A stretch of DNA of 63,229 nt, filler included, from Calcarisporiella thermophila CBS 279.70 (lineage: Eukaryota; Fungi; Calcarisporiellomycota): NCBI RefSeq assembly GCF_041956535.1. It is 7 parts of 4 records of this genome, joined end to end, with 100 filler letters (N's around TTAATTAATTAA, not from the genome) between each part and the next. Parts side by side here need not be neighbours in the genome. Positions count along the whole stretch, not along the records: positions 33,484 to 47,521 come from NW_027192238.1; positions 47,622 to 49,401 come from NW_027192249.1; positions 49,502 to 53,328 come from NW_027192212.1; positions 53,429 to 60,467 come from NW_027192212.1; 3 more parts are not named here. One strand, given 5' to 3'. The position numbers and the translations under genes are program-made. The notes below the pieces were generated by a model. It saw nothing but the letters and a program-made list of their open reading frames with translations, did not search any database and had not been told where the DNA came from. This document shows, piece by piece, positions 33,758-60,101 of the stretch (position 1 is its first letter; each line of letters opens with the position of its first letter).

Positions 33758-34101
33758 TTTTTTGATCAATCAATGGAAAATTTTATTTAATTTCCATATA
33801 TTACATGAAGTTAATGTCAATGGACTTAACATGACGAGATATAGGTCCTTGGTAGATAGGCGTTCAATCGATTTGCGTGGATCGTAGTTGTCGTGAATAG
33901 CATGTACGTGAAACCGATGGAATCTTTGTACTTATCGTAGGAGCGACCTTTTCAATAATGTAGACTCAATTTCTGATCAAGTGGACAGCAGTCACAAACT
34001 AAGAGTAAGTGCTGGTGGGGGAAGTGGGATTTGAACCCACGCCGTTCTCATCGGCATACCAGGGATAGTCCACTACACTAACCCTCCCCCAACCCTCCCC
34101 C
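33758..34101 (-). mobile_element. SINE-A (tRNA-like head with encoded CCA, poly-A tail)
   Basis: Homologous to 42861-42959 and 52057-52392; B box GGTTCAAATCC; 11-bp duplication of the head. Confidence 0.85.
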
Positions 34102-34186
34102 CTATTATTAGTTTCTTTATATTTTCAATCTCTTTTCAAATATCTCCTTAAACTATCTTGAGCATACGAAAAAAAATATCTGATAT

Positions 34187-34271
34187 CCGGCTATAGCTCA
34201 GCTGGTAGAGCGGAAGACTGTAGTGATCCATAGCAATCTTTAGGTCCCTGGTTCGAATCCGGGTGGCCGGA
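34187..34271 (+). tRNA. tRNA-Tyr(GTA) with a 12-nt intron (~34224-34235)
   Basis: CCGGCTA/TGGCCGG acceptor stem, A and B boxes, anticodon at 34220-34222, T-run terminator. Confidence 0.95.
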
Positions 34272-34820
34272 CACTTTTTAATTGATCTTGTCAAATTTTT
34301 AGTTTATTTATATTATAAACTTCATCTAAATTGATTTTTACAAATGTTCGCATTCTTTCACTTGTATATACTCATTTACTTCAATTTTAGCAATGGCATA
34401 TATATAATAATTATTATCAAAAAAATACATACTTTCGATTGAAATTAGTTACCATTAGCACCTAGGAGCTTGACGAATGAAGTTTCAGCTCCTGATATCT
34501 TTTTATAATCAATATCCGTTACAACCATTGCCTAAAATTCAGATTTCCAACTATTATCAATCAAAATCTCACCCCAGTTTATTCGACCGATTTATTATTC
34601 TTTATATAATCCCAAGGAAACGTGCTCAATCTCTCCCTTCAAGTCTGGGTCTGTCTTCCACCAATAGTTCACCGACAAAGATCCAAATGGAAATAAAAGA
34701 AAATAGATGCCAAGGAATGTTATGAGCCATTTTATTACGTGTAGTAGACAGTTGCAGAGGGAGGAGGGGACATAGCGTCAGAGCAGAGAAGTGTACAAGA
34801 TTGGAAATAAAATAAACAGT

Positions 34821-36684
34821 TTAAACAAGCATCTTTGACATATATGGTCCATCAAGCTTATATCCTAGCTTTGCGTAATATTTGCGCACCCCTACTCCTG
34901 AAATGACGCTTATTTTCACGCTCCCATGTTCCTCTCGGGCAATGCGCTCAGCCTCCTCCATCAGCAATGTACCATATCCTTGATGCTGGAATTTGGTTGG
35001 GTCGCGGCTGTGCATGGGGACCACCGATCCGTATACATGCAGCTCTCGGACTATTGATGTCTGCCCCACTGAGGTCAGCTCAGGTCGGAAAGTTTGAGGG
35101 GAGCATTTGCGTAGTCGTAGCAGTCCAATCAGAATATCCTGTTCGGGGTCCTCGTAGGAGAGGAATGTCTCCCATCCACCGTTGGCGGTGTAATCTCTTC
35201 GGATAAGCTCAACTTGGTGGGGGCGGACTTTATTGTGTACCTCTTGTATACCAACTTCACGCGTGCGCACATCTCGACACTCAGTTCCCAAGTCTTTCAT
35301 TCGCTGAAGGGCAAGCTCACGCAAATTTCCGTGCTCCACTCCCGAAGTAACTAGGGGCATGGGGATGTCACGCTGAACTCGGTATACTCGCGTCCATGGA
35401 GGCACAAGTGCAAGAATTTTAGCAACAAGATCTATGAGTGCATTGGGCGTGTAATTCTTGTATCTGCCAGTGCGCCACAGTTCGTAGAGACCTGTGCCGC
35501 GGATAACTAGTGTTGGATAGAGTTTCAATCCATCAGAACGGAAAGCAGGGTTCTCAAAATACTCTTTGAATTGTTCAATGTCTCTCTCCATTCCCACGTT
35601 GGGCAAGTCTGGCATCATATGGGCCACCACTTTAAATCCGGCATCCTTAGCTAGATGGAAAGATTCACATACAGCACGAACAGTATGGCCACGGTTCGTG
35701 TCGCGAGCAACGTCTTCATACACACTCTGCACACCAATCTCTAGCCGAGTACATCCATATCGTAACATTTGACTACAAAGAATAGATGCCTTGTAAAATC
35801 ATAGAGAATAAATTAGTTCATTGTTCAAGCCTCACATACCTCAGATGTGGTTTCAGACAGTAATCTGGCCGTGTTTCAATAGTAATTCCAATACATTTAG
35901 TTTCGCTCTGTTCAGAAAATCGTACTGCTTCATCTACATCGTTGCTAGCATTTCCGGATAGCGCGTCATGCAAATTGGAGATAAACCAATTACGATAGTC
36001 CTCGTTCATAGACATGAATGTGCCTCCCATGATTATATATTCAACCTTGTCAACGGAATGACCCAAACTACGGAGTTGTTCAATGCGTCCGCGTGATTGT
36101 TCAAACGGGTCATAGCGCGCACGGATTGCACGCATGCTCGTGGGCTCGTACCCTGTGTATGATTGCGTCGAATATTCGAAATCGGAATCTGGCCCACCTG
36201 GGCAATAAACACAAATATTTCCAGTCATTGCGATGTGCGGGCATCGATGGGGTTTGCACATAACTGCAACGACTGCAATCCCAGAGGCAGTTCGTACCGG
36301 TTTTGCTTTTAATTTTGGAAGCAGAGCATTCTTGTGTTGTTCAGGTATAGCTGCAATAATTTCTACGAGTCGAGGCTGTCGTTCAAGCTTATTGTTGCGT
36401 GAACACCGAGCTTTAACGGCATTGAGATTAACATCTTTTCCACGTTCATGAGCTTCAATTAGCTCTTGAACGATTTCAGCGCAAGCTTTAACAGTGAGTT
36501 CTGCCTAGAAAGAGATAAGAAAATAATTATCAAGATGAATCAAGCCTAGATTATTGTAAATATGTTCAGTGTACCTGAGTAGGACCTAGATCATTGGAAA
36601 TAATTTTAACGAGTTTAATAATGATCAGTTAAATCAAAGATTTTCAGCATAAATTTACTTACCTTTCTTTGATTTATTTACCAT
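34821..36684 (-). CDS. ELP3: Elongator subunit Elp3 (radical SAM + KAT); 11-nt exon at 36575-36585
   Basis: [46 protein letters not shown]. Confidence 0.97.
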
Positions 36685-37203
36685 GGTCGCTACGGCTCTC
36701 GATCAATTATTGATTTGAAGTTATCAAGTAGAAATGCCTTTGGTGGCTTATTGTTTGTTATTTTTCGAACATAATTAATTTTGGAACCTAAAGACAAAGA
36801 CCTAGAAAAATATTATCAAAATAAAAAATACTACTTTGAAACTTCATAGAAAGCTCGTTTGGCTTTCAGAAATATAAAACCAAGCTATAGAGGTGTATAC
36901 CAAATCTTGCAGAAAAAGTTTTAATAAAAAGATTTATAAAAATTATATATAGCAGAAAGGGAAAAGGAGATTTATTAGAAAAAAAAAGGGGGGGGTGGGG
37001 AGGGGAGTAAAAGGGGAAAGGGGAGGTAAGGGGAAAAATAAAAAAAAACTCGACAAAAGATTTAATTCCGAATTTCCCAACTTCAAGAATATTTAAAGAA
37101 AATTTGCACTCACCCTGCCACTCACAAATCCATATTATATCGAATTTTTTGAAAAAAAAAATAAAAAAATATATAAAAAAATTTTAATCCTAGGCACATT
37201 TTT

Positions 37204-40200
37204 CTACTGACTAGCTCTTTTAACCATTTCACGCGCCCAGCGAGCTACATCTTTAGTTTGAGCATTAAGGTGAGGGTTCGTTCTAACGTCACGGAAAAGT
37301 GCACCAATCCAGTCAGATTGGAACAGTTGTTTGCATTGGCCATTCTGGAAGGCTTCACCCAAATCACTAAAAAAGAAATATAATTAGTTTCATTCACTTT
37401 ACCATTGGCAACTTAATTTAAGAATTTAGATGAATTACCCTACGAGGCCTACGAGGTTACGCGTTACAGAAGTGGAGCGGTCCTGATCTGAAAACACCAT
37501 GTGGATGAAGCCGAACATCGTTTGAACATGCGGGATAAGAAGTTGAGCTAAAATTAATGGAGAGCACATGAGAAACCGGCGGTTCATTTTCAAAATGTCT
37601 AACAAGTTACCCTTGTCGCCACTCTTCATGGCTTGGGTGATCCCTACAAATGCCTCTAAAATTCCATCCCATAGAGCATTTTGGTAGTCAATCAAATCAA
37701 AGTTTGTTTTCTCTATGCGCGTCCCACATGCCTGATTCAGTACCATCATGGTAACATCAAGATATTTCTCAAATTTGTCTCCAATCGCAAGTGCGATATC
37801 GCCAAAGCATGAAAGAATCATGGGCTTAACGTCTTTATGCAAAACGGGATTCTGTAGATCCTGCATCAAGATTTGCATAAAATTATCGCAGAGAGGCGCA
37901 GCTTGTTCTCCGAGCGCGCGACAAACATCACCTACGAGACCCACAGCAATGCTGCAAAGCTGGTACTCCTCGGCATTCTGCAAAGCTTGCAACAACAATG
38001 GAAGGAATGGCTCAAGATAACGGGCAAATTCAGCATCAATAGCTAGTAAAGAAAATGATCAATTAATTCAATTCTTTATAATCACTCAGTTCACAAGCCA
38101 TTTACCAGCGGCAAGCGCCCCTGCGACCAGGAAGCAATCTTCATATACATCTTTCGATGCAACATGTAGCAACTGGAGGACGATGGTCATAATCTTGTCT
38201 GCAAGCGAGATTATCTCATGTCCAAGTTTACGGATAACGTTCTAAAAAAAGGAGGTATTGGTAAATGTATTCAAACCGTTAAAAAGTCATCTTACTGTTA
38301 ACACGCTCAATTGATTGGATTGAAGCTCGGAATGTGCCTTTTTGTCATCGCCGCTCACGAGTTGATTCTTAAATTAAAACGGTGAAATTAAGTAAAAGGA
38401 TAGGTTAGAGCTAACTAAAAGAGATCAACACTAACCTGCATTCCAATGCTTGCTTCAAGTCGTTCAAGCATTGTGACGCCAAGCTTCGAAATTGTTGGAT
38501 AACAATCTTTTGCCGCATTTTGTGTAAGGGTGGAAACAGCTTCGTAAGCAGAAGTACGGGATCGTGGCTCATTGTCAGGTCTAAAAAGAAAATGTAACCA
38601 TCAAGAGGAAACACTTAGCAGGGGAGTTTGAACCCTTACTTCTCAGTAGTCGTCAAAAGAGCATTCACAATGCCCTCGAAATAAGGCGACATCGGGCCAG
38701 TATTATCATTGTCACGATCGGTACCAAACTCCTCAGAAAGACTCATCAGTGCCCACGAGCAATTAGCTACGATCCTGGTGTCTTCACTAAGACCGAGTAC
38801 AAGAGACGATACTAGATTGTGGAGGTGCACCTCGATATTGATGGTGTTAGGAAGTACTTCGCACACACGACCCAAAGTCCAAGCGGCAGAATCTTTAACA
38901 TGATGCACGGGATCTTTCATCATTTCTATCAACACCGGGAGAGCCTATAAATGATTTCACAGGAATTTGTTTAAATCTTTAATTATATTAAAGCGAAGAG
39001 ATGAACTACCTGAGCAACCAATGGGGCAAGAATGTCCTCATTCGGACCGACAAGTATAGTTCCAAATGCCATAACTGCGGCATCCCGATAGCGCCAGTCA
39101 TTGCTGCGTATATGATTCTCCACAAACGGGATGATCGGGCCGACAACAGCATCCTGCACACACTGCGCAAGCAATGACAAACAAGTTGCTGATGCCATTG
39201 CGGCATTCCAATCTTCCTCGTCAGCGTGTTCATCCTGGCGAGTAAGTAGCCAAAGTAGCACAGGCAGAATTTCTGAAAGAGCAGCGCGGGCAAAGTTATG
39301 CGAGCTTCGTTCAGGCTGTTCGCCAACTTCAAGCGCCTCAGCGATTTCCTCGGCAATGTTGATTTCCTCGTCACAAACGGTTGACCAGAACTCAATGGCC
39401 TGAAGCGCAACCTTCTCCTCTTCGTGTTTCATGCCAAGAATTGTTAGCTAATATATCAGCATCAATAGAGATTAGCATGTAAGTCAGACCAAATCGTTTC
39501 AAACAAAGGATATATTACGCCAAACAGAGCCTTTTCCATGTAGAATCGCATTTTGTCATAATATAACTGCATGATTCTAACAAGGCACTCGAAAGCCTGA
39601 GCCTGAACATCAACGCTGTTGCTCTGGGTTGCTTCGCAAACGACCTGCATAATGTAATTGCGCTCACCCTAATCGAAAAGACAAGCCTAGGTTAAAATAA
39701 AGCAAAACACTCTATAATGAAAGTTAGAAAGCACCTCACGCTCAAAGTTTTCCCTAACGAATTCAAGTGAGTTATGGAGTGCCTTTAAAGCTGCTAAACG
39801 AATTTCTTGGTTGGGTTCTTCTTTCCGTGCTCCCTGCACAACAGCAGTCAGGATTTGGTTTGCTTGGGCAGCCAGAATTTCTGGCTCCTAAGGGAATTAA
39901 AAAGAAATAAGTGAAAAAGAGATACATTGAATGAGAGCAAGAAAAATATAAATTACAATTGACTCGCACACAAATCCAATAGCTGTTATTGTAGACATCT
40001 TTAAGTTCGAGTTCTCAGTATTCATGTTATCCAAAAGGATTTTAATCAGGTCTAGCCATTGTCCTTGTCTAAGCTCTACCGCTGCGATAGCAGCAATCAC
40101 CTATGTTTTCATGTCAACGTTTTCATATATTTAATGGTTAAAAAGCATCTCTGCAGTCTGTATTTACAATTCACATACCTGTGCGGCAGTGGTTCCTGCT

Positions 40201-40779
40201 TTCAAGTCCTTTGAACCCAACGTCATCAGCACTGCTTGTTTCACCTGACTCCGTGTGTTTTCATCCAGAGAAAGCCAGTTTTGGGCCATTTCTTGTTGCC
40301 GATGATATTCCTACATGATTACCGCACGATTAAAAGATCATCAAATCGGATGAAGCAGAATTAAAAGGTTCTTGCCATCTACCTTTGCCGTCAGTGTGTT
40401 TTTTAGAGCAATACCAGCGGATGTACGTATGTGTGTCGGGGTTTGGTCGTTGGCAAGCTCTTGGACAAGCATCACCGTGTATGCAGGCTAAAGATGAAGG
40501 ATATAGATATATAAATAAAAGTTTAAACGATCTTGAAATGTGAAAACGGGACGCAATTCTTTCAAATTAGAGGATTACATCATTTCCAAAGAAATACTTA
40601 CGAAATTTTCCTTGGAGGCAAGCTCGAGTTTCTGAGTAGCATCTTCGCGGATTTGCTGGTCTAATGATTTGTAAACATTAGATAAATCATGAAGCCAGTA
40701 TCGAAAACGAGTAAGAACACGAAAAAATTAAAAACTTACCCGGAGAGAGTGTGTTAGCAAGTATCTCGGCGATGCTCAT
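37204..40779 (-). CDS. KAP95: Importin beta-1 (multi-exon)
   Basis: MSIAEILANTLSP, QAIEFWSTVCDEE, WRYRDAAVMAFG, VKPMILSCFGDIALAIG. Confidence 0.93.
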
Positions 40780-42706
40780 TTCTTCTTTTATTAGGGTGTC
40801 TCGTCGTGAAAATAAAATATAAAAGCGTGCTGAAAATTGAAAAATAATCTTCTGAGATTGTTTCAAAAGAAAATTTCTATTTGATAATAACTATGGAAGA
40901 ATGTGAAAAAGCGCTCCCAGAAAGCGCCTTAGTTAGTATGGTTATAGAGGAAAGTTATCTTTTCCGGTTGCGATGGGCGAAGAAAAAGAAACAGAAAGAA
41001 CAAACAAAAGGTGGAAAGGACGCACGCATTAAATTTTCTTTTCAAACTCCAGCCAAAAAAACTGCTTTCATCACAATTTTGCTAGTTGACTTCGAATGAA
41101 GCTAACAGACAAATACCCCTCCATCTACTTGGGTGTAGTGCATTTTGATTGGCTCGATTCAATGGATGGGGACTTAGGACGCTATGAAGAGAATATCTTC
41201 TCTTCATAGCGTCATTTGTAAGCTCACTCAAACGTGCTGAAACTTTGCCTAAACATATTATCATGTCATTCACTATACAACTGCTAGAAGCAAATGGAGC
41301 AGTAGTGCTATCAACACTGATCAATACTGATTGATGATAAGCCCTAACACCAACGGACTATTTTCTGCAACCCCCCACACGCACACTCTTTCTTTTATCT
41401 TGAGTGTCAATCAATCAATTGTTCAAGTGGTATAGCACTCGCTTTTTTATGTAATCCTGATAGGAATAATCAGTGGTAGCCCTCAAACGGCTCTGCTTGC
41501 TTTTGATTTACAAAGCAAAGTTTTCACAAAAGAATTTAGCGACGCTGTGGATTTCTGCTACCTCTTAGCATTCGCGATCATTTAGTGGAAGTAATTTAAT
41601 AGGATGGTCGCCTTTACCTAACTGAAGCAAGAGAGAAACGAAATTTAGACTCTAAATCTATGGAGGAGAATTGACTTCCATGCGCTCTCAACCAATAGAG
41701 TCGAGGATTGATATATTTATGGATTAATCATAAATATTTACCTATAATAAAGGATAAATGGGAACCAGAATCACCGGTTTTTTTTTAAAAAAAATAAACC
41801 GGCCAATTCTGGAGTGTAATTTAGAGCTATGAAATATATCTTTCACTTTCTGTACGTTAGAAGTAATACTATGACAGTAGCGTTTCACTCATAATATTAG
41901 AAAATGAGTTGCTATTATAATTTTACTCAACTTTATTATTATAGCCAAACCATACGTATTGAATTCCTTGATATAGTTGGAATCATAATCTCCTAACAAC
42001 ATTCTTAGCTCCTGTCTCTCAATACAACATATAGCATCCATGTTGAGACCCAACTCTCAAGAGATTAAGATGCTTTCTCATATACTTCAACTTCTCTCGA
42101 TGCTATAACAATATCGTATTAGTGGCAGTATTCCTTGCTCTTGTAAATTGCGAGTTAACTTAAAGTACGTAAAATTTCACTATCAGGTGAATGTAAAGGA
42201 TATGAAAGATAAATTAATAAGATAAATTATTACTATTAATGTCCCAACGTATCAATAGAGGTTATCTCTATGAAACACACGCCTTGGCTAAAAGTTTTAG
42301 CAAAGCTTATCTATAATTAAAAATGCTGAAAGTTTACAAAGCCTGAGTAAGTATATATAATCGTTAAACATATTCTATTTTGTTTTTGTTTTTTTCATTT
42401 AGCTTTATTTATATAGAGGTGTTTTATCTCAAACCTCTTCAGCTTTACGATACTTTTCTTATCTTGACATCTTGTTTGCGCGTCGTTGCTACTGATTATG
42501 ATGTGAGTTTCGTTCAAATCTACCAGGGATTCACTTCATTTATACTCTATGTTTTTGAGCAGCTGCCGCTACAATTTAATATTTTGAAGCGAAATTAGTA
42601 TAAAAAAGTTTAATGGCAACATTACTGCTTTATTATTTATAATTCAAGTGATGCAAATACTATCGAGCAAGCAATTAACTAAAAAATGGCTTTTGTTAAA
42701 AAACAC

Positions 42707-42778
42707 TGCCGTTGCCCGGAATCGAACCGGGATCATCACGGCCACAACGTGATGTACTAACCATTATACTACAACGGC
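42707..42778 (-). tRNA. tRNA-His(GTG)
   Basis: GCCGTTG...CAACGGC-A cloverleaf; TCACG-TTGTGGC-CGTGA anticodon arm. Confidence 0.95.
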
Positions 42779-42793
42779 TAAATTTTCCTTAAG

Positions 42794-42860
42794 TGTTACG
42801 AGGAAAATAGAATACCATGGGGAATAAGATTGTGACGGCGTTTTGGGGAATCGTCGCCCC
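42794..42860. mobile_element. Probable LTR terminus (TGTTACGAGG...) 15 bp upstream of tRNA-His
   Basis: Reverse complement TTTTCCTCGTAACA resembles the LTR ends at 44049, 51980 and 60459. Confidence 0.5.
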
Positions 42861-42959
42861 GGGGGAGGGTTAGTGTAGTGGACTATTCCTGGGATGCCGA
42901 TGAGAACGGCGTGGGTTCGAATCCCACTTCCCCCACCAGCACTTACTCTTAGTTTGTGG
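42861..42959 (+). mobile_element. SINE-A head (rest lost in the N gap)
   Basis: Matches the copy starting at 52057. Confidence 0.85.
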
Positions 42960-43564
42960 NNNNNNNNNNNNNNNNNNNNNNNNNNNNNNNNNNNNNNNNN
43001 NNNNNNNNNNNNNNNNNNNNNNNNNNNNNNNNNNNNNNNNNNNNNNNNNNNNNNNNNNNNNNNNNNNNNNNNNNNNNNNNNNNNNNNNNNNNNNNNNNNN
43101 NNNNNNNNNNNNNNNNNNNNNNNNNNNNNNNNNNNNNNNNNNNNNNNNNNNNNNNNNNNNNNNNNNNNNNNNNNNNNNNNNNNNNNNNNNNNNNNNNNNN
43201 NNNNNNNNNNNNNNNNNNNNNNNNNNNNNNNNNNNNNNNNNNNNNNNNNNNNNNNNNNNNNNNNNNNNNNNNNNNNNNNNNNNNNNNNNNNNNNNNNNNN
43301 NNNNNNNNNNNNNNNNNNNNNNNNNNNNNNNNNNNNNNNNNNNNNNNNNNNNNNNNNNNNNNNNNNNNNNNNNNNNNNNNNNNNNNNNNNNNNNNNNNNN
43401 NNNNNNNNNNNNNNNNNNNNNNNNNNNNNNNNNNNNNNNNNNNNNNNNNNNNNNNNNNNNNNNNNNNNNNNNNNNNNNNNNNNNNNNNNNNNNNNNNNNN
43501 NNNNNNNNNNNNNNNNNNNNNNNNNNNNNNNNNNNNNNNNNNNNNNNNNNNNNNNNNNNCACTT

Positions 43565-43979
43565 ACTCGTTGTAGTTCGTGGTCAAATTGTTTGGTTATG
43601 GCTACCGGATTGGGTTGGACATCGTCCAGCACTAATTCAAGTCTCGAGCGGTATATTATCCACAGGGCTATGTCGTGGCTCAGAGCAACCACTTCGTTGA
43701 AGCGTTGACTTAATTGTTTGCTTGTCCAAACAGTCTGTCTTCTCTCGTGGATTCGTGTGGCGGTATTCCAATTATTCGGCAGTTTATCCCATCAACTCTT
43801 TGCCAGAGTTGCGCGATAGCTGGGCAGTCTAGAAAGGCATGGGCAATTGTTTCAGGTATCCCTAGGGACCACCTTTTGCAAGTGTTAGGATCTCCAGTCC
43901 ATTTGCTAGTGATGATTCCGGTAACCATTTTATGCTTCATAGGTCTCCAGCGAAGGATTCTGTGCTTGGGTTCTGAAGT
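43565..43979 (-). mobile_element. LINE family 2 ORF2 fragment (zf-RVT), 5'-truncated
   Basis: PKHRILRW and ETIAHAFLDCP; homologous to 59870-60083. Confidence 0.82.
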
Positions 43980-44049
43980 CACCAAAGCTAAGCCTCCATT
44001 CTCTACTACTGCGCCATTGATGCATTTAGTTCCAAATTTCCTCACAACA
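43980..44049. mobile_element. LTR1 terminal 70 bp (...CCTCACAACA)
   Basis: Aligns to 51912-51980. Confidence 0.75.
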
Positions 44050-44062
44050 AAAATAAAAATCG

Positions 44063-44135
44063 GGTTCTATAGTGTAATTGGTTAGCACCCAGGACTCTGA
44101 ATCCTGTAATCTGAGTTCGAGTCTCAGTAGAACCA
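44063..44135 (+). tRNA. tRNA-Gln(CTG)
   Basis: GGTTCTA/TAGAACC acceptor stem; CAGGA-CTCTGAA-TCCTG anticodon arm. Confidence 0.95.
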
Positions 44136-45109
44136 TAAATTTATCTTTTTACCCACGATATGATAAGAAAGGGTAATATTTTCGAACACAATAACGAAGA
44201 CATGGATAACAACAAAAAGATAAGCAAGAGATTTGAGCACTGTAACAAGAGCCAAGTCAACAAAAATAATATCATCGCCATAACCAGTAATGACAACAAA
44301 ACAACCAGTAACAACCAAAGCACCTATATGGATGATAACAACAGCCACATCTTTCTACCCAAAAGAACCAAGAAAGACAATAACGACGGCACTAATAATG
44401 CCAGTAGACTGCCAGCAATTTGTTATAAAAATCATAAAAACTCACTCTGGCGAACCGTTGCGAAAGCAAAGAAAAAACAATACTTTCGAAGTGATAAAAA
44501 CCACAGTGAAGAACTCTTATTTCTCCAAGCCATTCCAAATACATCGGAGCAATTCTCCAAAGATATTCACAACACTAAGCTCGCTAACTAAAAGGGATAC
44601 AACATGCGCAATAGGCTCAGCTTGAATCAAACTTATTCTTTTCACTAGTCCCATACCCAATAACATCACGTTTTTACGCTAGATCTCGACTAAGTAGGCC
44701 ATGAGTATTATCTGGATGATTTTGGCGTAGAAATCTAGCTTACTGTTCATGGGTATGGAATTCTATTTAATAAAATCCTGTATAATGATAAAAAAAGGAA
44801 ACAAAATAAAAACACAAAGCTCAAATAGTCCCTCAAAAACGTCGAGAAGCCATATTTGTCAAACCAAGGCAAGGATGTCATACCTGAATGAAGAGAGATC
44901 TCAAGCAACCCCATCAAGTGAAAGATACCTTGAAAGTACTGGAAGAAGCGACCGATTGAACCAAAGCAAAAATCCTAAAATAGAGGCTCATGAAATACTG
45001 ATGTATCGCAGCAGCAGTAGTAAGCAAGTGGAGCATAGCGCCGTGGAAAGCATTGCCCATGCTTACCTGGAATGCACAGTCCTGAATCAACCACGGTAAG
45101 TAGTGGACA

Positions 45110-46224
45110 TTGTCAGTCGGATCCTTGGGATTCGGGCACATGTGTCAACCAAAGAGGACAGACTTTTGGACATTCGAAGAAGGTGTGACGGATGGTGTCC
45201 CTCGGAGCGTTACAGCGGGTATATTTCGGGTCATGACCGGGGAATGTCGAGTATGTAATTACACGCTCTACGAGGATTCGCCAGCGTAGTGTGCGGTGTT
45301 TTGGGAGTGTTGGCCGTTTTTGGATGGAGGTCCAGACCTTTTCCCATTCCTTTGCCGTGGATGCAACCTCTGGCCAAGATTGGGGCGTCAGCGTTTCTGG
45401 TTCCGGAGAGCCATTTCGCTGGTGCCTTCCCCGGCGGGTGGAGTATTCCGGGACGGGCGCGCCAGCCAGGTGACAGAGGTGAAGTGGGAAACGAGGAGGC
45501 GGAGGTTGTCGGGGTATGGCAGAACATTTCGTGATTTTCTCTACTAGGTTGGGGGGCAGGATAAGGTATCCGTGTTCCCATTCTAAGGAAAAATCGTTAT
45601 AGCGACGTTCGCACGCTCTTTTTAGCCTTTCCGTGGGTTGCGCAGAATATCTACGCTCCATTTCCGATTGTATCGGCATGTTTTGGATAGGAGTCGGGAG
45701 TTAATCAGATGAACTTTCCCTAGGAGGCTGAGTTTCCGGATTCTCCATGATTGGATCGTCTGTCTCAGTTTCGATAGCTGGCAAGTGTAGTATGCCTCAT
45801 TTGGGTGTTCTGGCATATGTGTGGGGTTAACTGCTGAGGGGAGGTAGATCGGGATGCCGAGGCATGTGATTGCTCCTCCTGCGGGTATGTATTCGCATCC
45901 AGGGTCGATGGAGGTTCGAGCAGCAGGTGTGAGTGCTACGGCCTCCGTTTTGTCGATGTTAATTTTAGCATCTGCCGCTCGTGAGTAAGTGTCAATGAGC
46001 TGGTAGAGATTGGTGATATCCTGTTGGTCAGCCACTCCGACAGTCAGGTCGTCTGCGTACGCGAGTGTCGTGATTGACCGTGGGAGTCCTGGGACAGAAA
46101 TGCCCCGTATCTTGCACTTGATTGCCGCAAGTAGAGGTTTAGCTGTGATGTTGTAAAGGTATGGGGACAGGAGGTTGCCCTGTCTTAACCCTCTTGTGAT
46201 TGGGAATGGGGCTGTAAGAGAACC
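45110..46224 (-). mobile_element. LINE family 1 with RT core and zf-RVT, internally deleted
   Basis: RGLRQGNLLSP, AYADD, KINIDKT, CLGIP, then a jump to the zf-RVT region. Confidence 0.9.
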
Positions 46225-46293
46225 CTTTCATTTAACTTGTATAGGAGACTTTTCAATAAAGATCCTTTAATCTCGAAAAAAAAGAACTTGTTG

Positions 46294-46563
46294 GCCTTCC
46301 TTGGTTGGCAGAGTGGTTAAGAGCCCCGGAGCTTAACCACTGTGTGCTAGGTTTGATTCCCGGCGACGGCACCAGTACTAGAGATGGGTCCGGGTCATAC
46401 TCTAGGAATCGAGCAATAAGCTACTTCGTTAATAATTTGATATTGGTAGTTATCAGTAAACAAGTAATACATGTAAGAAAATGGTAGAGGGAGTGTACAG
46501 TTCTTTCATTTAACTTGTATAGGAGACTTTTCAATAAAAATCCTTTAATCTCAAAAAAAAAAA
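46294..46563 (+). mobile_element. SINE-B (tRNA-like head with CCA, LINE-like tail) with GAACTTGTTG TSD; extra tail fragment at 46225-46283
   Basis: Homologous to 54511-54798 and 60102-60388. Confidence 0.88.
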
Positions 46564-46577
46564 TAATGAACTTGTTG

Positions 46578-47473
46578 AAGAATTACGCCAATGGAATTGG
46601 CAATTGTCATGGACAGCCAAGAACATGAGGGCATCACATTCAAGTGTGCCTTCTTATCAGATCTTCTCATAGCAATCAAAGGACAATGGATACAGGCACA
46701 AAGGAAAAAAGACGAAGAAGAGTTCAAGCAAAAAATAAAATGTTCGCTAATCCAGATCGATGATAGCCAAGAGGCAGCCTTCAATTTCGAGGAAGCAAAG
46801 AACTCCTAACCAGACATTTCCAAGTACGGAACTCTCTAAACTGTATTCCATGGGATAACTTTCGCGGACGACCCATATTTTCTCTTGACGAATTAGTTGG
46901 ATCATTTTCTTCATCCTGACGTATATTTGATACGGTAGTTCTGCTGGTTCCTTCACGAGCAGCAATTTCACGTGTGGAATAGCCTTCTTCGAGTAGGTCC
47001 GATATACGAGCGCGTTTAACAGGAGTATTGCGAGGCACAATGCTTATATAATAAGATAATAAAAAGCGAGGCTAACAGAATACATGGGATAATTTTCGGG
47101 CGATGGATGCTTTTTGTTGTTGAATTACAAGAGTATTAATCCACACTGGACTAAACGAGCAAATATGTCCCAAAAAAATTTCGGTTTAAAACGCATTTAC
47201 CCTTGAAAAGTTACAAACATAGCACTCCTTGATGTGAATGGAATGAGAGCTGATGTTATAAGGTTTTGCAAAATATATAATATTTCTTTGAAGTTTTATC
47301 CTTATAGGAAGTATGATTCGTAATATGAAAAAAGGGGGTGTCAAGAAACTTTTGAGAGGCACTTTATCTACCATGTCTTACATGTATTGCTTATTTTCTA
47401 ATATCTTTATCTATCAAATTTTCTTTATTAACAAAAAATGAAACTTTTTAATAAAGATCCTTCAAAAAAAAAA
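46578..47473 (+). mobile_element. Decayed LINE family 2-like 3' end, interrupted by a Tc1 fragment
   Basis: IKGQWIQAQRKKDEEEFK resembles IKSKWWMAMKQDRKKDF; tail ACTTTTTAATAAAGATCC-polyA. Confidence 0.6.
46830..47364 (-). mobile_element. Tc1/mariner fragment (one TIR and the HTH N-terminus)
   Basis: GYSTREIAAREGTSRTTVSNI...GRPRKLS; TIR-like TA-AAGTGCCTCTCAAAAGTT. Confidence 0.7.
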
Positions 47474-47621
47474 TAATGAACTTGTTGGATCAAAAAGATA
47501 AAAAAGATCATTTTTATACCCNNNNNNNNNNNNNNNNNNNNNNNNNNNNNNNNNNNNNNNNNNNNTTAATTAATTAANNNNNNNNNNNNNNNNNNNNNNN
47601 NNNNNNNNNNNNNNNNNNNNN

Positions 47622-49401
47622 GGTTTTTGACGGTCGCTTTGTTTAAGGCTCTGTAGTCGATACACATTCTGAGGTCGCCATCTTTCTTTTTTGCAAAGAG
47701 TGTTGGGGCTCCAAATGGTGATTTGCTTGGTTGGATGAACTGTTTGTCGATAAGATCTTGGAGTTGAGTCCGTATTTCGTCCAATTCAGTGTAACTGAGT
47801 CTGTAAGTTGGCCTGGAAGGTGGTTCAGTTCCGGGGATTAATTCAATATGGTGATCTACAGTCCTTTCCGGAGGCAATCCTGGAGGAAGAGAGTCAGGAA
47901 ATACATCATTATAATTGTTCAACAATACTTCAAGATCAGGGTTGTCGATTGAGTTGTTGGATTCGTTATCGTCTGTTTTGCTCAATAGTGTCAAGTAAAT
48001 CTCGTGTTGCTTCGTGAGTCGCTTCATTTGCATTGCTGATAGCATTTCCACGTTACTGTTCAGCGCATTTTTGAACTCGATTTCTTGGTTTCGATGAAAA
48101 AACGTTATAGTGTTGTTTCTCCAGTTGATCTGAGGATTGTGCTCGACTAGCCAAGTCTTTCCCAAGACGATATCATAATGTGGAAGGTCTGCAACAATAA
48201 AGTCAAGTGATTGCTCGTATTCTCCAAGCCGTAAGTGGGCGTCTACAAGTGTTCGGCTACAGATCTGTTTGTCACCGTTGGCAAAAGATAATTCGGAATC
48301 GGGAGTTTCGACTATCTTATTACCGAAACAATAGGCTAAGTCTTTCGTTACAAAATTGTCGGATGCTCCTCCATCGACGAGAATTTTGACCGGAAATTTG
48401 TCTAGAAATCCTCGATACATCAGAAGGTCTCTGCGTCGATTGATCGTCGTCATGTTGAGTTGGGGCGGTGGGGAATTAGCGGGAAAAATATTTTCATCAT
48501 TGGTCCCAGTGGAGATCCCCTTCAGCACCGGGACTTGAATTTTTCCGACGATGATTGCGTGTTTCTCGACTTCTTGGGACACGCTTGAGCAATGTGACCT
48601 TTCTCGCGACAGAAAAAGCACGATCCGCTCTTTCTCAGTCGCTCTTTTTCGTTTTCGTCAAGTTTTTTGTGTCTTTGGATTGCATCGATCTCCATTGGCC
48701 GTGGTCCACTATGAGCTTCGCGACTGGTTGAGGCGCGAACATTAAACTCAGGTCGATGTTCCCGGTTACGAAAATAAACGGCATCGTAGCGCTCGGCTTC
48801 TCGCACTGCTTCGTTTAGGGTAGGCGGGTTCTTGTATTCAATTTCCTTGCGCGTTTGCACTTTTAGCCCTCGAATAAACTTGTCGATCAATTCTTCCTCC
48901 GTAATTCCTGGAATTTGCATTGCTAGTGACCTGAATGTTACTGCATACTCTTGCACGCTGCGTCGTTGTCTTAGGTCCGCAAGCTTATCTCTCGCATGTT
49001 TAACCGAGTTTATCGGTTGGAACATGATGATGACTTCGTTTTTGAAGGTGTCCCATTCTGTTGGCAATCGTCCTTGTATCTTCAAATGTCTCCACCAAAT
49101 AAGGGCGTCTCCTTGGAATAAAGCAGCGGCATACGGGACCTTCATATGCTCAGGGGGATTCGTTCCCACGAAATAGTTTTCAACTTGATCAATCCATTCG
49201 CGCACGTCGGGGTAGTGTCTGCCACCAAACCTGGCGGGTTCAGGCATACGGAAAGGTGCTGGTACAAAAATCGGTTCCATTATTTCAATATCGTTGTCTC
49301 GTAAAAATAATTCTGGTGTCTAGTGTCTGGTTTCTGGTTAAAATTTTTCTGGATTTCTAGTAGTTTCACGTAGGTAGATCGAAGTCGTCGCTACCAATTG
49401 T
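47622..49401 (-). mobile_element. Ty3/gypsy LTR retrotransposon internal region: PBS, gag (49280-48522), protease and start of RT
   Basis: Retrotrans_gag region, [14 protein letters not shown] knuckle, [29 protein letters not shown]; PBS TGGTAGCGACG at 49386-49396. Confidence 0.95.
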
Positions 49402-49501
49402 NNNNNNNNNNNNNNNNNNNNNNNNNNNNNNNNNNNNNNNNNNNNTTAATTAATTAANNNNNNNNNNNNNNNNNNNNNNNNNNNNNNNNNNNNNNNNNNN
49501 N

Positions 49502-50880
49502 TGCGAAGAAGAGGTGAGGAGAGCCATCCGGCTGGCTCCAATGAGGCGTATGCTCGGAGGTAGCCCAGTAGCATCACCAAACTGGACTGCGACCGAGGCC
49601 TTGTCCCTACCTCTCTACAAGTGCCCGTTAATCACAGACGAGGGCGGACAGATGGAGGAGCCAAAACCCCCAACACCGCCATACCTCCTCAATGAGACAC
49701 TAACTTTTGTACGCTGGGGAGGACAAATCGAGTGCAGATCGCTCCATAATCAGGCTTTATTTGACAGGAATATTGGAAGGCAATCGGAAATGGAGCGTAG
49801 ATACTCTGCGCTCCCTACTGAAAAGCTAAGGAACGCGTGCCACCGCCGATACTGCAGCCGTTCTCTTGGATGGGAGCTCCGTTACCTCAACTTACCCCGA
49901 GCTTAGTTGCAAAGGTCACGGAGTGTACTGATATACCGCAACAACACCCTCACCCCCGTTTCCCACTTTATCACTGCCACCTGGCCGGCAGGCCTGTCGT
50001 AGAATACTCCACCCGACAAGGACGGCACTTCCGGCGCAACGGCTCTCTAGAGCCGAACATATTGGTTCCTCAATCCTGGCCAGAGGCTGGATCTACACAC
50101 GAGGATTGGAAGAAAATCTGGACTTCCGTCCGCAAACGACCCACCCTCCCAAAACACCGTGCGCTACGCTGGCGGATTCTTGTAGAAAGAGTTATCACTA
50201 ACTCTACATTCCCTGGTCACGATCCAAAGTGTACCCGCTGTAACGCTTCGAGGGATACAATTCACCATACTTTTTTCGAACGTCTGAACTTACACCAGTG
50301 TGACAGTGGGCAGAGAGGTGTATCATCACCATCACAGGCCTCCAGAATTCTCAGGAGCTAAGTGCTCGCAACCTCATAGTAGGAGACCTATATGAATCCT
50401 CACGAACAGCAAAGCACGTGGCTCAAATTATCTTCGACTCGGTACTGTGGCAAATCCATCGGGATCGCATTGCCTTCCATTTCGAGAGCACCCGAGCCTC
50501 ACCCGAAACTATCAACCGGGCCAAACTGGATATTGAGGAGGCTATAGGAGCCGAACTAATAAGAGCCCGAAAAAAGCAACAAATCGAACAGTTTCGAAAC
50601 AGGTGGTGCCAATAGGGTACGGTTAAAGAAGGAGATACTAGAGCGGTTCTAGAACTGGATTGACGCAGCAGCCCCTACTGCTTATCCTTTTTCATCTCAC
50701 TACATTTTCTGATATCCTGTGCTAGCTGAGATTTACCTATTTGAGTTGAAAATTGTTATAATCAATTTATCCCAAACTAAAATACCACCTTAATATTTAA
50801 CTTTCCTTTCCTATTACTTTCAATAATGTAACTATTGTATTTTAGAGTCTTCTTAAACAATTAAGACTCGATAAAAAAAA
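49502..50880 (+). mobile_element. LINE family 1, 3' half with 3' UTR and poly-A
   Basis: zf-RVT region with frameshifts; terminal GAGTCTT..AAGACTC hairpin before the A-run. Confidence 0.85.
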
Positions 50881-51475
50881 TATACCGATGCCTACTAGCA
50901 GTTTACACAACAACTACGGCTATATACAGCATCTATCACATCTATCTCTCTATATGATTATGCAATTTTAATCTTTCATAAGCATATCTCTATCTCTATT
51001 CATTTCAACTATAGTAAATAAAAATAAAAATATAACCTCCCTGATTGATCGAAATATATTGAAATACTTGCTCTCCTTAGCGTTACAAGCCCTACGGCTT
51101 CAGAGATTAGAGCATTAGATCCTAGATCATTCAAGATCATCTAGGACATTCAAAAACACGACCAGCATAGAAATAATGTATTTGTTCCCCGTGAAATCAG
51201 ATTCTATCTTGCTTTAATATTTCTTCATAATACTTTGTAAACTTAGACTTGATAAAACTTACCCCACTACCCTTTCAGTAAACAAAATAGAATATCTCAA
51301 AATAATTTTTGATTTGCTTTTTCAATTCAAGTATATTATTGTACCAATATTTATAACATATTCAAATCGCATATCTCATAACGCATTAAAATTAATATAA
51401 GAATTGTAATAGACTTGGGAAGATGGTGAATAAGAAATGAAAATTTGTAAAATTTTTAAAGTGGTTTAAAAAAAT

Positions 51476-51557
51476 TGACGAGAGTGGGATTCGAACCCAC
51501 GCCTCCGAAGAGATCACGGCCTTAACGTGACGCCTTAGACCGCTCGGCCATCTCGCC
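51476..51557 (-). tRNA. tRNA-Leu(AAG)
   Basis: GGCGAGA/TCTCGTC acceptor stem, TCACG-TTAAGGC-CGTGA anticodon arm, long variable arm. Confidence 0.96.
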
Positions 51558-51566
51558 TATTTCTTG

Positions 51567-51980
51567 TGTTGCGTCGAATAATAGACTAATAAGGTCTATC
51601 CTGACAATCCTCTAGCTATCCCTAAGCTCTTGATTGTCCTTCCGTAAACACTTCAGAAGGCTAATAAACGACACAAAGTGGATTGTAAAGTAATCCGGTT
51701 CTATCACAAAACAAAAATAGCACCCTTTTATTGTAAACAAAGATGTTTCCCTTTTATACTAAAGATAACGTACCACAAACATAAATGTAAACAAGATAAT
51801 AAAAATATAATGAGGTAATCAAGGAAAAATATGTTAACCGTAACCGTAAGCTAATAAATATACTAATAAAACCATCCCAAGGACTTAAAGAAGTGTAAAA
51901 GAAAAATAAGCCACCAAAACCAAGCCTCCTTTCCTCCTACTGCGCCATAATTCCATATTGTGCCAATTCTCCTCACAACA
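51567..51980. mobile_element. Solo LTR1 (414 bp, TGTTG...CAACA) with 4-bp TSD CTTG
   Basis: CTTG at 51563-51566 and 51981-51984; homologues at 43980-44049 and 61622-61968. Confidence 0.85.
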
Positions 51981-51985
51981 CTTGA

Positions 51986-52056
51986 TGTTATAGGCAAAGG
52001 GAGATTTCGTGGAGAGCTGTGCGGATTCCTTAATAATAAAAATAAGAGATTGGGAA
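51986..52056. mobile_element. LTR2 start (TGTTATAGG...), interrupted by SINE-A
   Basis: Near-identical to 59042-59108. Confidence 0.75.
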
Positions 52057-52392
52057 GGGGGAGGGTTAGTGTAGTGGACTATCCCTGGTATGCCGACGAG
52101 AACGGCGTGGGTTCGAATCCCACTTCCCCCACCAGCACTTACTCTTAGTTTGTGACTGCTGTCCACTTGTTCAGAAATTGAGTCTTCATTATTGAAAAAA
52201 ATCGCCCCTACAAAAAGTACAAAAGATTACATCGGTTTCACGTACATGCTATTCACGACAACTACGATACACGCATATCGATTGAAAGTCTATCGATCAA
52301 GGACCTATATCTCGTTATGTTACGTCCATTGACATTAACTTCATGTAATATATGGAAATTAAATAAAAGTTTCCATTGATTGATCAAAAAAA
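52057..52392 (+). mobile_element. SINE-A, full length
   Basis: GGGGGAG...TTCCCCC-A-CCA head, B box GGTTCGAATCC, poly-A. Confidence 0.88.
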
Positions 52393-52439
52393 GAGTTTAA
52401 TGGTTACAATGAAATAAGAAAGGGGGGAATAAAGGGTAA

Positions 52440-53328
52440 ATTAGATGTATATAGTGATCGGGTATTTGGTGAAAGGTATGAAGTAAAGAGGAGGGGAGGA
52501 GGGGAGGAGGGAAAGAGCGGATTGGGAGAGAGGAAGGGTTGCTTCGTTACTCCAGTTTTAGTCTTGCTCTATCCGAACTTTCTATTACCGCTCCCTGACT
52601 GCACCATCTTCTTCGGAATAACTCCATCTCTCGTCTTTTACGTGCCTTTATCAGTTCACCTCCGATAGCCTCCTCGATGTCCATTTTGGCACGGACGAGG
52701 ATTGTCTCGGGTGATGCTCGAGTGCATTCGAAATGGTAGGCGATTCGGTCCCGATGGATTTGCCATAACACCGAATCGAAGACGCTTTGAGCCGCGTGTC
52801 TTACTGTCCTCGGGGCTTCTGGTAGGTCGCCAAGTACGAGGTTCCTGGGGCTCAGCACCTGAGTGTTTAGGGGGCCTGAGATGGTGTTGATACACCTTTC
52901 CGTCCAATGCCACACTGACGTGAGTTCGGGACATTCGAAGAAGGTGTGGCGGATGGTGTCCCTCGGAGCGTTACAGCGGGTACATTTCGGGTCATGACCA
53001 GGGAATGTCGAGTTTGTAATTACACGCTCTACGAGAATTCGCCAGCGTAATGTGCGGTGTTTTGGGAGGGTTGACCGTTTTTGAATGGAGGTCCAGACCT
53101 TTTCCCATTCCTTTGCCGTGGATGCAACCTCTGGCCAGGATTGGGGCGTCAGCGTTTCTGGTTCCGGAGAGCCATTTCGCTGGAAGTGCCTTCCCTGTCG
53201 GGTGGAGTATTCCGGGACGGGCGCGCCAGCCAGGTGACAAAGGTGGAGTGGGAAACGAGGAGGCGGATGTTGTCGGGGTATGGCAGAACAGTTCGTGATT
53301 TTCTCTACTAGGTCGGAGGGCAGGATAA
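52440..53328 (-). mobile_element. LINE family 1, 3' region
   Basis: zf-RVT; near-identical to 45170-45564 and 33484-33735. Confidence 0.87.
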
Positions 53329-53428
53329 NNNNNNNNNNNNNNNNNNNNNNNNNNNNNNNNNNNNNNNNNNNNTTAATTAATTAANNNNNNNNNNNNNNNN
53401 NNNNNNNNNNNNNNNNNNNNNNNNNNNN

Positions 53429-53640
53429 GAGAAGAGGCATCCGAGACTACACGGAACTCCCATCCTTCACTACCAAGTGGTTTTTCCATGCGGCCATCAA
53501 CGAAGGGGGCATGGGAATGCCGGAGCCCTGGTCGTGGGCGTGCTGCACCCAGACCTGGCACGTTCTCTGCCTGCTCAACTCGGAAGACGAAGTGGTAAAA
53601 CACACGACACGAAGACAGTCGAGCCAGGATGCTAGCGAAG
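53429..53640 (+). mobile_element. Possible fragment of a different non-LTR element (post-RT region)
   Basis: TKWFFHAAINEGGMGMPEP resembles the GGLG motif. Confidence 0.4.
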
Positions 53641-54346
53641 GCTTATTTACGACACAACTGTTTATGAACTACAACTAGCGATTCCCCAAACAATCCGATG
53701 TTCGAAGTACCGTCTACTTAGTCGGAAAAAAAATTAGTACGGCCATAATGATAGAGGGATTTTTTCATGCTAGCAATATAACGTCGTTGGACCCTTTGTT
53801 ATATGTCCGACCTCGAGATCTTGACCAACCATTAGCTACCTTTGCCAAGCGATATAGGAAGTGAAACTGTGAACTCGACGCACTATTTCGATATGGTATA
53901 TTGTATATAAGCTTCTGAGGACAAGTGCTTCTCAGGGGTTGGAATATGGCCTTTGAGTCATTCTACGAGAGCTGTGTAATAAAAAATTGCTAACGGAGAC
54001 CTGGATGACCTATTGAATTAGTGCTCAATTGACCTCCAGCCCACAGTAACCGCAAAAAAAAAAAATGAATACATTAGATAGAATTTAGCTACTAATGTTG
54101 AGCAAAGCGATATCTAAAAATCAGAAAGAATTTATTCCTGCACAGGAGTGCAACGATTAATCCCAACATATATCGACGCATCAATTATTACCAATATTAC
54201 TAGTTTTCAACTGCATTTCGTTGAATTTAATCGGGATACCATAATTTTTGTGTTATTTAAGTACTTTTGCCACGACCAAAACAAATGAAAAATCGACAAC
54301 GCTTTCGAAATCAAAAAATTTACAAAATATTGTTTGAAAAAAGTAG

Positions 54347-54428
54347 TGACGAGAGTGGGGTTCGAACCCACGCCTCCGAAGAGATCACGGCCTAAACGTG
54401 ACGCCTTAGACCACTCGGCCATCTCGCC
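54347..54428 (-). tRNA. tRNA-Leu(TAG)
   Basis: TCACG-TTTAGGC-CGTGA anticodon arm; downstream T-run. Confidence 0.96.
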
Positions 54429-54510
54429 TTCTTGCATTTCATATTTATGATGAATCATATATTGCCTATTTCATAATTGATTCAATCTCCGACGATTAAC
54501 AATTCATTCC

Positions 54511-54798
54511 GCCGTCCTTGGATGGCACAGTGGTTAAGAGTTTCGGATCTTAACCATTGTGTGCTGAGTTCGATTCCCGGAGACGGCACCTGTACTATAG
54601 ACGTGTCCGGGACCTACTCTAGGAATCGAGCAATAAGCTACTTCGTTAATAATTTGATATTGATCGTTAATATAGTGACTTGTCAGAAATCAAGAAATAC
54701 ATGTAAGCAATGGTAGAAAAAAATAAGTATACAATCCTTTCATTTAACTTGTATAGGAGACTTTTCAATAAAAGATCCTTTAATCTCAAAAAAAAAAA
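54511..54798 (+). mobile_element. SINE-B, full length, followed by a LINE ORF2 scrap (~54815-55000)
   Basis: A box TGGCACAGTGG, B box GTTCGATTCC, poly-A; downstream KTVKTWKSRSISHLGKV. Confidence 0.88.
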
Positions 54799-55290
54799 TT
54801 AGCAACCCATTTCATTTGACCTTGTTGCCACCATTCCCTTCTATCCCGTAAGATTACTCCTTTACTCTGTTAATGATCCCATTCAATACCAAAAACATAT
54901 TTCCACCCACGTCATTCTACGAACAACTGTTGGAGAAGTTAGAGAAAACAGTTAAAACCTGGAAATCACGCTCAATATCCCACCTAGGAAAAGTTTTACA
55001 TGTCATTAAAAAAATCGTTATTAGAATTAGCCATAAACCAGCATACTTTTAGTTTTAGTGATCCCATTATTTAGTTTTATATAGTTATTACAACTCTCGT
55101 ATCCTATAATATAGAGTATAAGATTTTGTTTATAAATTTGCGCCTAAAGTTTAATTAATAGAAAAGCACAAATAAATTTTAGCTATATATATTTTCATTT
55201 TACTCCATCTTTTCAATGCTCTCAGCCATTGGATTCATATAATAGTTTATTGTAATATCAATTCTAATCCATCAAATATTTCCAGCATCT

Positions 55291-60084: not shown

Positions 60085-60101
60085 TTAGGCGCTTCCTGAA
60101 T

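Follow-up and report, generated by a model that had tools for sequence, protein, structure and literature searches.

tRNA genes and the elements beside them

The window analysed here is the whole stretch of 63,229 nucleotides (nt) from Calcarisporiella thermophila, an early-diverging fungus placed in the Mucoromycota. It consists of seven contigs separated by N spacers and enriched for repeats. Upstream of five of its six tRNA genes, on three contigs, a short or long interspersed nuclear element (SINE or LINE) belonging to one of three families begins 81-87 bp before tRNA position +1 (at one gene once a probably later insertion is subtracted) and runs in the opposite direction. These observations support the view that, in a fungus, elements insert upstream of tRNA genes at a specific position and in a specific orientation. 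All six genes pass the Rfam tRNA model (55.6-69.1 bits over the whole window) and have kept a B box and a downstream T-run:

34187-34271, + strand: tRNA-Tyr(GTA) with a short intron; Rfam 56.8 bits, isotype read from the sequence, T-run terminator; anchor 1
42707-42778, - strand: tRNA-His(GTG); ARAGORN and Rfam; anchor 2, +1 at 42778
44063-44135, + strand: tRNA-Gln(CTG); ARAGORN and Rfam; anchor 3
51476-51557, - strand: tRNA-Leu(AAG); ARAGORN and Rfam; anchor 4, +1 at 51557
54347-54428, - strand: tRNA-Leu(TAG); ARAGORN and Rfam; anchor 5, +1 at 54428
63020-63103, - strand: tRNA-Leu(CAG); Rfam; the sixth gene, +1 at 63103

Two SINE families occur. SINE-A, an element of about 335 bp, is present in three copies that are 94-97% alike; the three full copies of SINE-B, about 290 bp in length, agree at 83-95%. 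Both families have a tRNA-like head with a B box and with pairing in the acceptor and T arms, a body that is not tRNA, and poly(A), which are the characters of tRNA-derived SINEs. The heads fail the Rfam tRNA model, and each is followed by a common body of 200-250 bp and poly(A). ARAGORN's three other tRNA calls are SINE-A heads and were rejected as genes; Rfam gives them about 21 bits, and to tmRNA only.

33758-34101, - strand: SINE-A, full length; 94% identical to 52057-52391; 11-nt duplicated head at 34091-34101
42861-42958, + strand: SINE-A head; 97% identical to the other two copies; the remainder is N
52057-52391, + strand: SINE-A, full length; splits repeat X; divergent from Leu(AAG)
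54511-54799, + strand: SINE-B, full length; 95% identical to 60099-60388; divergent from Leu(TAG)
60100-60388, - strand: SINE-B; perfect 16-bp target site duplication (TSD); head 79 bp from the contig end
46225-46577, + strand: SINE-B tail fragment, then a full SINE-B (46294-46563); duplicated flank, no tRNA anchor

Measured from tRNA +1 to the 5' junction of the element, the spacer is 82 bp at His (SINE-A), 82 bp at Leu(TAG) (SINE-B), 85 bp at Tyr (SINE-A; 96 bp if the 11-nt duplicated head is left out), 87 bp at Gln (LINE2) and 81 bp at Leu(AAG) (SINE-A), the last after a 414-bp long terminal repeat (LTR) and its 4-bp duplication have been subtracted from a raw 499 bp. The Gln junction was placed at about 43975 because LTR1 homology reaches 43976 and the LINE protein match begins at 43970. 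A preliminary description of this DNA had reported divergent elements of three families upstream of five of six tRNA genes on three contigs. The remeasured spacers bear this out and reproduce its values for His, Leu(TAG), Tyr (duplicated head counted) and Leu(AAG) (LTR removed); its value of about 83 bp for Gln, with a junction near 43979, is corrected to 87 bp. It also described the elements as always pointing away from the tRNA gene. This is true of the anchored junctions, at all five of which the 5' end of the element faces that of the tRNA gene, opposite to transcription, and untrue of the window at large, where seven of 19 junctions are unanchored and one LINE aims at a tRNA gene. The spacing is spread over 6 bp when counted from tRNA +1, versus 16 bp when the B box or the tRNA 3' end is the reference, and therefore points to the upstream end of the RNA polymerase III (Pol III) complex.

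The list of LINE and SINE 5' junctions (n = 19) was compiled by hand, within contigs only and with decayed junctions counted, from this one window; four further LINE copies whose 5' ends lie beyond their contigs were left out. Five junctions are anchored, two are stacked behind an anchored SINE, one (SINE-B 60388) lies 79 bp from a contig end, four are stacked behind SINE-B 60388, and seven have no tRNA anchor. In order to estimate how often such spacing would arise by chance, the 19 junctions were placed at random, on random strands, in 200,000 trials, and we scored trials in which at least four of the six tRNA genes each had a divergent junction within 1 kb and these junctions fell in the same 6-bp window, wherever that window lay; the LTR-corrected Leu(AAG) case was excluded. 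This was reached in 0 of 200,000 trials with uniform placement, in 0 of 200,000 when junctions were restricted to the 1.5 kb around tRNA starts, and in 3 of 200,000 when they were restricted to 0.5 kb. The pattern in this one stretch is real and statistically strong.

At the sixth gene, Leu(CAG), the 126 bp upstream were aligned to four element ends and gave no significant match (17-238 of 300 shuffles). The first five bases of this gene are repeated just upstream of +1 (63099-63108), possibly the footprint of an insertion or excision. A GC-richer segment with an A-run at the contig end (63170-63229) begins about 70 bp upstream of the gene; it could be the 3' stub of some element and matches nothing else in the stretch.

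Two of the anchored loci carry further repeats between the tRNA gene and the element:

51567-51980, + strand: solo LTR1 of 414 bp with TG...CA termini and a 4-bp duplication; lies 9 bp upstream of Leu(AAG) +1
43976-44049, + strand: right-hand 74 bp of LTR1; 80% identical to 51908-51980; ends 13 bp upstream of Gln +1
51986-52462 (51986-52052 and 52392-52462), - strand: repeat X, split by SINE-A; 97% identical over 67 bp to 59042-59108

The spacers were compared pairwise, and all ten pairs align no better than shuffles (p 0.18 or more), in keeping with the unrelated flanks noted in the preliminary description. That description had named a shared motif at the junctions as something that would refute it; none was found among the spacers and the sequences before the junctions, where the last 30 nt and the spacers agree at 5-15 of 30 positions and the highest value, 15, comes from two A-rich flanks. 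The spacer at Gln is mostly an LTR1 remnant and that at Leu(AAG) is repeat X, so that one distance is maintained over four kinds of underlying DNA. As these two sites fall within repeats unrelated to each other, the insertion site is not dictated by the sequence beneath it. Three of the five 3' flanks start with ATT after the poly(A), possibly a weak local preference. A conserved target sequence, as expected of a sequence-specific LINE of the Tx1 group, is absent from the junctions. Dewa, Keno and Mutsu of that group are LINEs with an APE-type endonuclease that lie at multicopy small-RNA genes and are reported to recognise a target sequence, in contrast to the elements described here, for which no shared motif was found.

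LINE families, stacks and other repeats

The LINE copies of the window are as follows, together with the other members of the longest stack:

31299-32450, - strand: LINE3 fragment (LINE1-related subfamily); no tRNA anchor
33484-33735, - strand: LINE1 fragment, 5'-truncated; 97% identical to 52463-52714; protein match P0004
43563-43975, - strand: LINE2 fragment, 5'-truncated; 92% identical to 59871-60082; protein matches in the zf-RVT region; abuts the LTR1 remnant
45116-46224, - strand: LINE1 fragment with reverse transcriptase (RT) and zf-RVT; Pfam RVT_1 and zf-RVT; 98% identical to P0001
54810-55028, + strand: LINE fragment of a further family (P0178-like), 5'-truncated; 56% amino acid identity to P0178, E 5e-15
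59256-60082, - strand: LINE2, 5'-truncated, with 3' untranslated region (UTR) and poly(A); its end of about 50 nt resembles the SINE-B tail
60568-61620, + strand: internally deleted LINE with open reading frame 1 (ORF1) and a LINE2-like 3' UTR; 5' end off the contig
58255-59255, - strand: further stack members, namely repeat X (59042-59255), a tRNA-headed SINE-C (head near 58970) and a decayed SINE-B-like copy

The LINE protein fragments are 75-98% identical to C. thermophila proteins at NCBI, and the next relatives are about 40% identical or less. RT (Pfam RVT_1) and zf-RVT are present in the stretch, the latter after the former, in pieces and with no intact copy. APE was found in the same-family proteins P0006 and P0007, giving an ORF2 of APE, RT and zinc finger with no RNase H. 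The best solved relative is human L1 ORF2p (E 4e-37 to 2e-36), and R2 scores 5e-22 or weaker; by protein likeness we place these LINEs in the L1 group and not specifically in Tx1. An RT tree was built by a quick method from 51 rows selected out of 267, with P0122 omitted and with no TRE5, Zorro or named Tx1 row. The Calcarisporiella LINEs form one clade (97) in it, inside a 28-row clade (97) with Rhizopus and Linnemannia rows and apart from the fish, frog and coral rows. ORF1 of the copy at 60568-61620, known from broken gene models, has zinc knuckle and RRM-like features; the Atlas scores of 0.88-0.90 for it are a lead only.

The last 50 nt or so of SINE-B resemble the LINE2 3' end (81% over 53 nt, E about 1e-6 within the stretch). 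A 3' tail held in common usually marks a SINE and the LINE that mobilises it, and LINE2 is likely the partner LINE of SINE-B; both are found at the site upstream of tRNA genes. A 24-nt SINE-A motif had no exact match in metagenome contigs.

Behind three of the five SINEs with a readable 3' flank, a 5'-truncated LINE fragment follows directly (at 33735, 54810 and 60082). These are the SINEs at Tyr, at Leu(TAG) and at 60388, and the LINE fragment has the same orientation as the SINE in every case; at Tyr there are 22 extra nt where the LINE1 fragment meets SINE-A. The stack behind SINE-B 60388 runs about 2 kb further through repeat X, an older SINE and a decayed SINE-B-like copy, with one inverted piece. 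Such stacks would be expected of successive insertions at one distance from an intact tRNA gene, with older copies pushed outward, and the three loci parallel the tandem copies that repeated use of one site produces in TRE5, a group of non-LTR elements of Dictyostelium. The last seven bases of that contig, which ends at 60467, may be the start of a tRNA-Lys gene, in which case the spacer of SINE-B 60388 would be 72 bp.

LTR1 has TG...CA ends, a short TSD and a position within about 15 bp of +1, as Ty3-like elements do, at two of its three copies. A third copy at 61669-61968 has no tRNA gene, and the remnant at Gln is oriented opposite to the Leu(AAG) copy. The insertion at Leu(AAG) probably came later than that of SINE-A. 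At 9 and 13 bp from tRNA +1, LTR1 indicates that insertions closer than the SINE and LINE site are tolerated. Repeat X probably belongs to the LINE1 at 52463-53328 as its 3' end, judging from homology that picks up again after SINE-A (0 of 300 shuffles) and from a weaker link to the LINE1 UTR (13 of 300). A second LTR family was considered for repeat X and set aside in favour of a probable LINE 3' end, because the homology continues toward the LINE1 3' UTR.

Several other features were seen. Internally deleted LINEs at 49502-50692 and 60568-61620, one without RT and one without most of ORF2, are possible non-autonomous derivatives like TRE5-A.2. The translation of 53429-53680, at a contig start, reads like another LINE family. 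A decayed coding-like stretch at 29690-31000, read by eye, is one that we take to resemble a CACTA/Plavaka-type DNA transposase. The contig at 47622-49401 (- strand) encodes Ty3/gypsy gag-protease; a primer-binding site lies where the contig ends, and 3 bp of LTR are visible. Contig 1 (1-26607) has a GC content of up to 0.64, versus 0.31-0.48 elsewhere, lacks copies of these repeats, and carries genes for Hsp70, glutamate synthase, a DAG-kinase-like protein and a forkhead protein. This contig may represent another compartment of the genome or have another source.

How the insertions may be aimed

We think it probable that L1-group LINEs insert here under guidance of the Pol III complex, in the manner of TRE5, with nicks about 66 and about 82 bp upstream of tRNA genes and with SINEs served in trans. 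By analogy with TRE5-A, a LINE protein would dock at a tRNA gene on the complex that initiates Pol III transcription, in which TFIIIC places TFIIIB. The endonuclease would then nick the first strand about 66 bp before +1, a figure obtained by subtracting the 16-bp duplication at Leu(TAG) from 82, and the other strand about 82 bp upstream, some 16 bp further out; both positions are read from that one decayed duplication. Target-primed reverse transcription from the first nick would leave the element 5' end toward the tRNA gene, and orientation would be fixed because one defined strand is cut. The tRNA-headed SINE RNAs would reach the same site by borrowing LINE proteins in trans. As the tRNA gene is left intact, each new insertion would fall at the same distance and displace older ones outward. 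A broader proposal, that early-diverging fungi possess their own L1-group clade with Pol III homing independent of the amoebal TREs, a register of about -66/-82 and trans aiming of SINEs, is put forward as a tentative and rather doubtful one. On this proposal the aiming function may sit in ORF2p rather than in ORF1p, because RNAs that encode no protein, the SINEs, would also home to tRNA genes; SINE copies, being Pol III units themselves, may in addition seed new landing sites, as the LINE1 that lies 69 bp upstream of SINE-B 46294 may indicate.

A number of observations weigh against this reading. It rests on five events in a single window of repeat-rich contigs. The seven unanchored junctions are at 32450, 44694, 46224, 46225, 46294, 47330 and 57655; upstream of LINE3, near the first of them, searches with Rfam (E up to 10) and for a B box found neither a tRNA gene nor another RNA gene nor a B box. 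SINE-B 46294 is full length yet has no tRNA anchor. Its 14-bp flank (46280-46293 and 46564-46577) recurs after a third tail (47474-47487) and, in part, before its head, so that one site seems to have received as many as three insertions although no tRNA gene is left beside it. A LINE1 junction at 46224 is 69 bp upstream of SINE-B 46294 and divergent to it; SINE promoters may serve as targets, or this may be chance. At Leu(AAG), a LINE1 (53328 to 51986), whose 5' end lies beyond the contig, seems to stop 10 bp short of +1 and is aimed at the tRNA gene, and the 81-bp value at this locus hinges on the insertion order that we infer. A single LINE junction is directly anchored (LINE2 at Gln), LINE1 being seen only in stacks. 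No partner LINE was found in the stretch for SINE-A, which accounts for three of the five events. As for TSDs, they are clear in two of five SINE copies tested, SINE-B 60388 and 46294 (0 of 1000 shuffles each). SINE-B 54511 has a possible decayed 16-bp duplication with 12 of 16 positions matching (12 of 1000 shuffles), the SINE-A at Leu(AAG) has none that is significant (159 of 1000), and none was found at the SINE-A of Tyr (636 of 1000). A Tc1/mariner-like transposase fragment, read by eye, lies between 46564-46577 and 47474-47487.

Distant relatives were sought with an alignment of 20 LINE ORF2 proteins against viral, metagenome and genome contigs. No match was found in the viral contigs. 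The 112 loci retained were 80 kept out of at least 570 confirmed in metagenome contigs and 32 from genome contigs. None of the 112, which are mostly 23-48% identical and many of whose contigs end at the element, has the geometry seen here, and this too counts, if weakly, against Pol III-guided insertion. ARAGORN at its default score found tRNA-like genes in two of them, L085 and L111, and both candidates were rejected. In L085 (7042-7496), two tRNA-Arg-like units in a repeated context look like SINEs, and one points toward the LINE; L111 is a weak match in a prokaryote record, and neither locus has the geometry. The L085 contig is filed under a bacterial genome, carries an animal-like LINE and looks like eukaryotic DNA with tRNA-derived SINEs; several other genome-contig matches look like similar contamination.

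Chromatin, and not a protein tether to TFIIIB, could set the distance if the endonuclease cut where accessible or bent DNA first occurs beside the nucleosome positioned upstream of the tRNA gene, much as Ty1 makes use of fixed nucleosome surfaces. The site lies about 35 bp beyond the 40-54 bp given for TRE5 (PMC5911963), the Ty1 hotspots described in PMC3545840 have a periodicity of about 80 bp and positioned nucleosomes upstream of Pol III genes, one site is common to several element families, and unanchored copies are present. We nevertheless hold this explanation to be unlikely: the window has a single peak and a single orientation at all five loci, whereas Ty1 is described as inserting in both orientations over 1 kb (PMC3545840), and such a preference alone would not be expected to favour tRNA genes over other promoters. 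It is very improbable that insertion is untargeted and that the pattern was left by survival near tRNA genes or by an assembly in which contigs break at repeats. The contigs are indeed short and repeat-rich, and seven of 19 junctions are unanchored; however, a regional preference reaches four of six genes in a 6-bp window in only 3 of 200,000 trials and predicts neither single orientation nor stacking, and LTR1 survives much nearer to the tRNA gene.

An endonuclease that recognises a target sequence which happens to lie upstream of tRNA genes, as in Tx1-group elements, would account for the 14-bp flank that recurs after three SINE-B-type tails and for the ATT at three of five 3' flanks. The duplicated flanks, however, differ between loci, agreement is limited to 5-15 of 30 positions in the spacers and the 30 nt before the junctions, and two sites are inside unrelated repeats, and we give this account very little credence. 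It is scarcely believable that the SINE heads should be ordinary tRNA genes arranged as divergent pairs, or that tRNA gene and element were duplicated as a unit: although ARAGORN reports tRNAs at three SINE-A heads, none of the heads passes the Rfam tRNA model, they run into the 200-250 bp common body with poly(A), SINE-B has clear TSDs, and the anchors comprise four isotypes with unrelated spacers.

Relation to known systems

The proposed guidance of insertion by the Pol III complex has its closest parallel in TRE5 of Dictyostelium discoideum, in which ORF1p binds subunits of TFIIIB and the target tRNA gene must have a functional B box. As with the L1-clade elements TRE5-A, TRE5-B and TRE5-C, the elements lie upstream of tRNA genes, with their 5' end toward the tRNA 5' end and at a fixed distance from +1, and they share 5' truncation, tandem stacking and an ORF2 with APE, RT and zinc finger (PMC3159450, PMC5391098, PMC5911963). 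For TRE5 a position 40-54 bp upstream is given as typical (PMC5911963), and for TRE5-A a genomic range of 37-90 (PMC5006619); the text on TRE5-A argues that distance is measured from tRNA +1 and describes tandems (PMC5391098). The 81-87 bp measured here fall outside the 40-54 bp of TRE5, and the host is a fungus. Because of this difference in distance, and with no TRE5 in the RT tree, the fungal LINEs were not filed as TRE5. Natural tRNA-headed SINEs use the site here, whereas the word SINE is absent from the main text of the Dictyostelium papers examined. TRE5-A is reported to aim through ORF1p, with 0.5% activity without ORF1 (PMC3159450), and the TRE ORF1s are stated to resemble no other ORF1 (PMC5006619); the LINE2-type ORF1, in contrast, has zinc knuckle and RRM-like features.

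Other dictyostelid non-LTR elements upstream of tRNA genes, unrelated to the TREs, are NLTR-B of Polysphondylium pallidum at 39-64 bp and NLTR-A of D. purpureum at 2-6 bp (PMC5006619). In these, RNase H is described as replacing the zinc finger (PMC5911963), unlike in our elements, in which zf-RVT follows RT. Among fungi, Pol III genes are targeted by Ty1 and Ty3 of Saccharomyces, Tj1, Tca8/beta and Tyl3/Tyl6/Ylt1, and LTR1, found 9 and 13 bp upstream here, acts in the manner of the Ty3 group as outlined in the same review (PMC5911963); the Ty1/Ty3-type LTR elements differ in using an integrase and not target-primed reverse transcription. Grem-LINE1 of Mucor is an L1-group fungal LINE with the same order of zinc-knuckle ORF1, APE, RT and zf-RVT (10.1101/706580). 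It is, however, pericentromeric, and "tRNA" occurs 0 times in that text (10.1101/706580). Of the other L1-group fungal LINEs, Zorro3 of Candida albicans differs in that it is described as targeting poly(A), and for Ylli of Yarrowia no tRNA preference is reported in the text available for it.

The table of a 2018 review has only dictyostelid non-LTR elements at tRNA genes (PMC5911963), and a 2016 survey calls TRE targeting unique to dictyostelids (PMC5006619). Our literature search, with subscription journals and Repbase reports outside its reach, found no description of LINEs or SINEs in fungi that sit a set distance upstream of tRNA genes. What is new here is the fungal host, the longer register and the sharing of the site by SINEs; the strategy itself is already known. 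The fungal case extends distance-measured homing of non-LTR elements to another supergroup, at a different distance. The abundance of targeted SINEs suggests a division of labour between ORF1p and ORF2p different from that of TRE5-A, because TRE5-A ORF1p is reported to work poorly in trans (PMC3159450). A LINE that places non-coding cargo next to a conserved Pol III complex, with the gene undisrupted, is a candidate system for insertion at safe sites.

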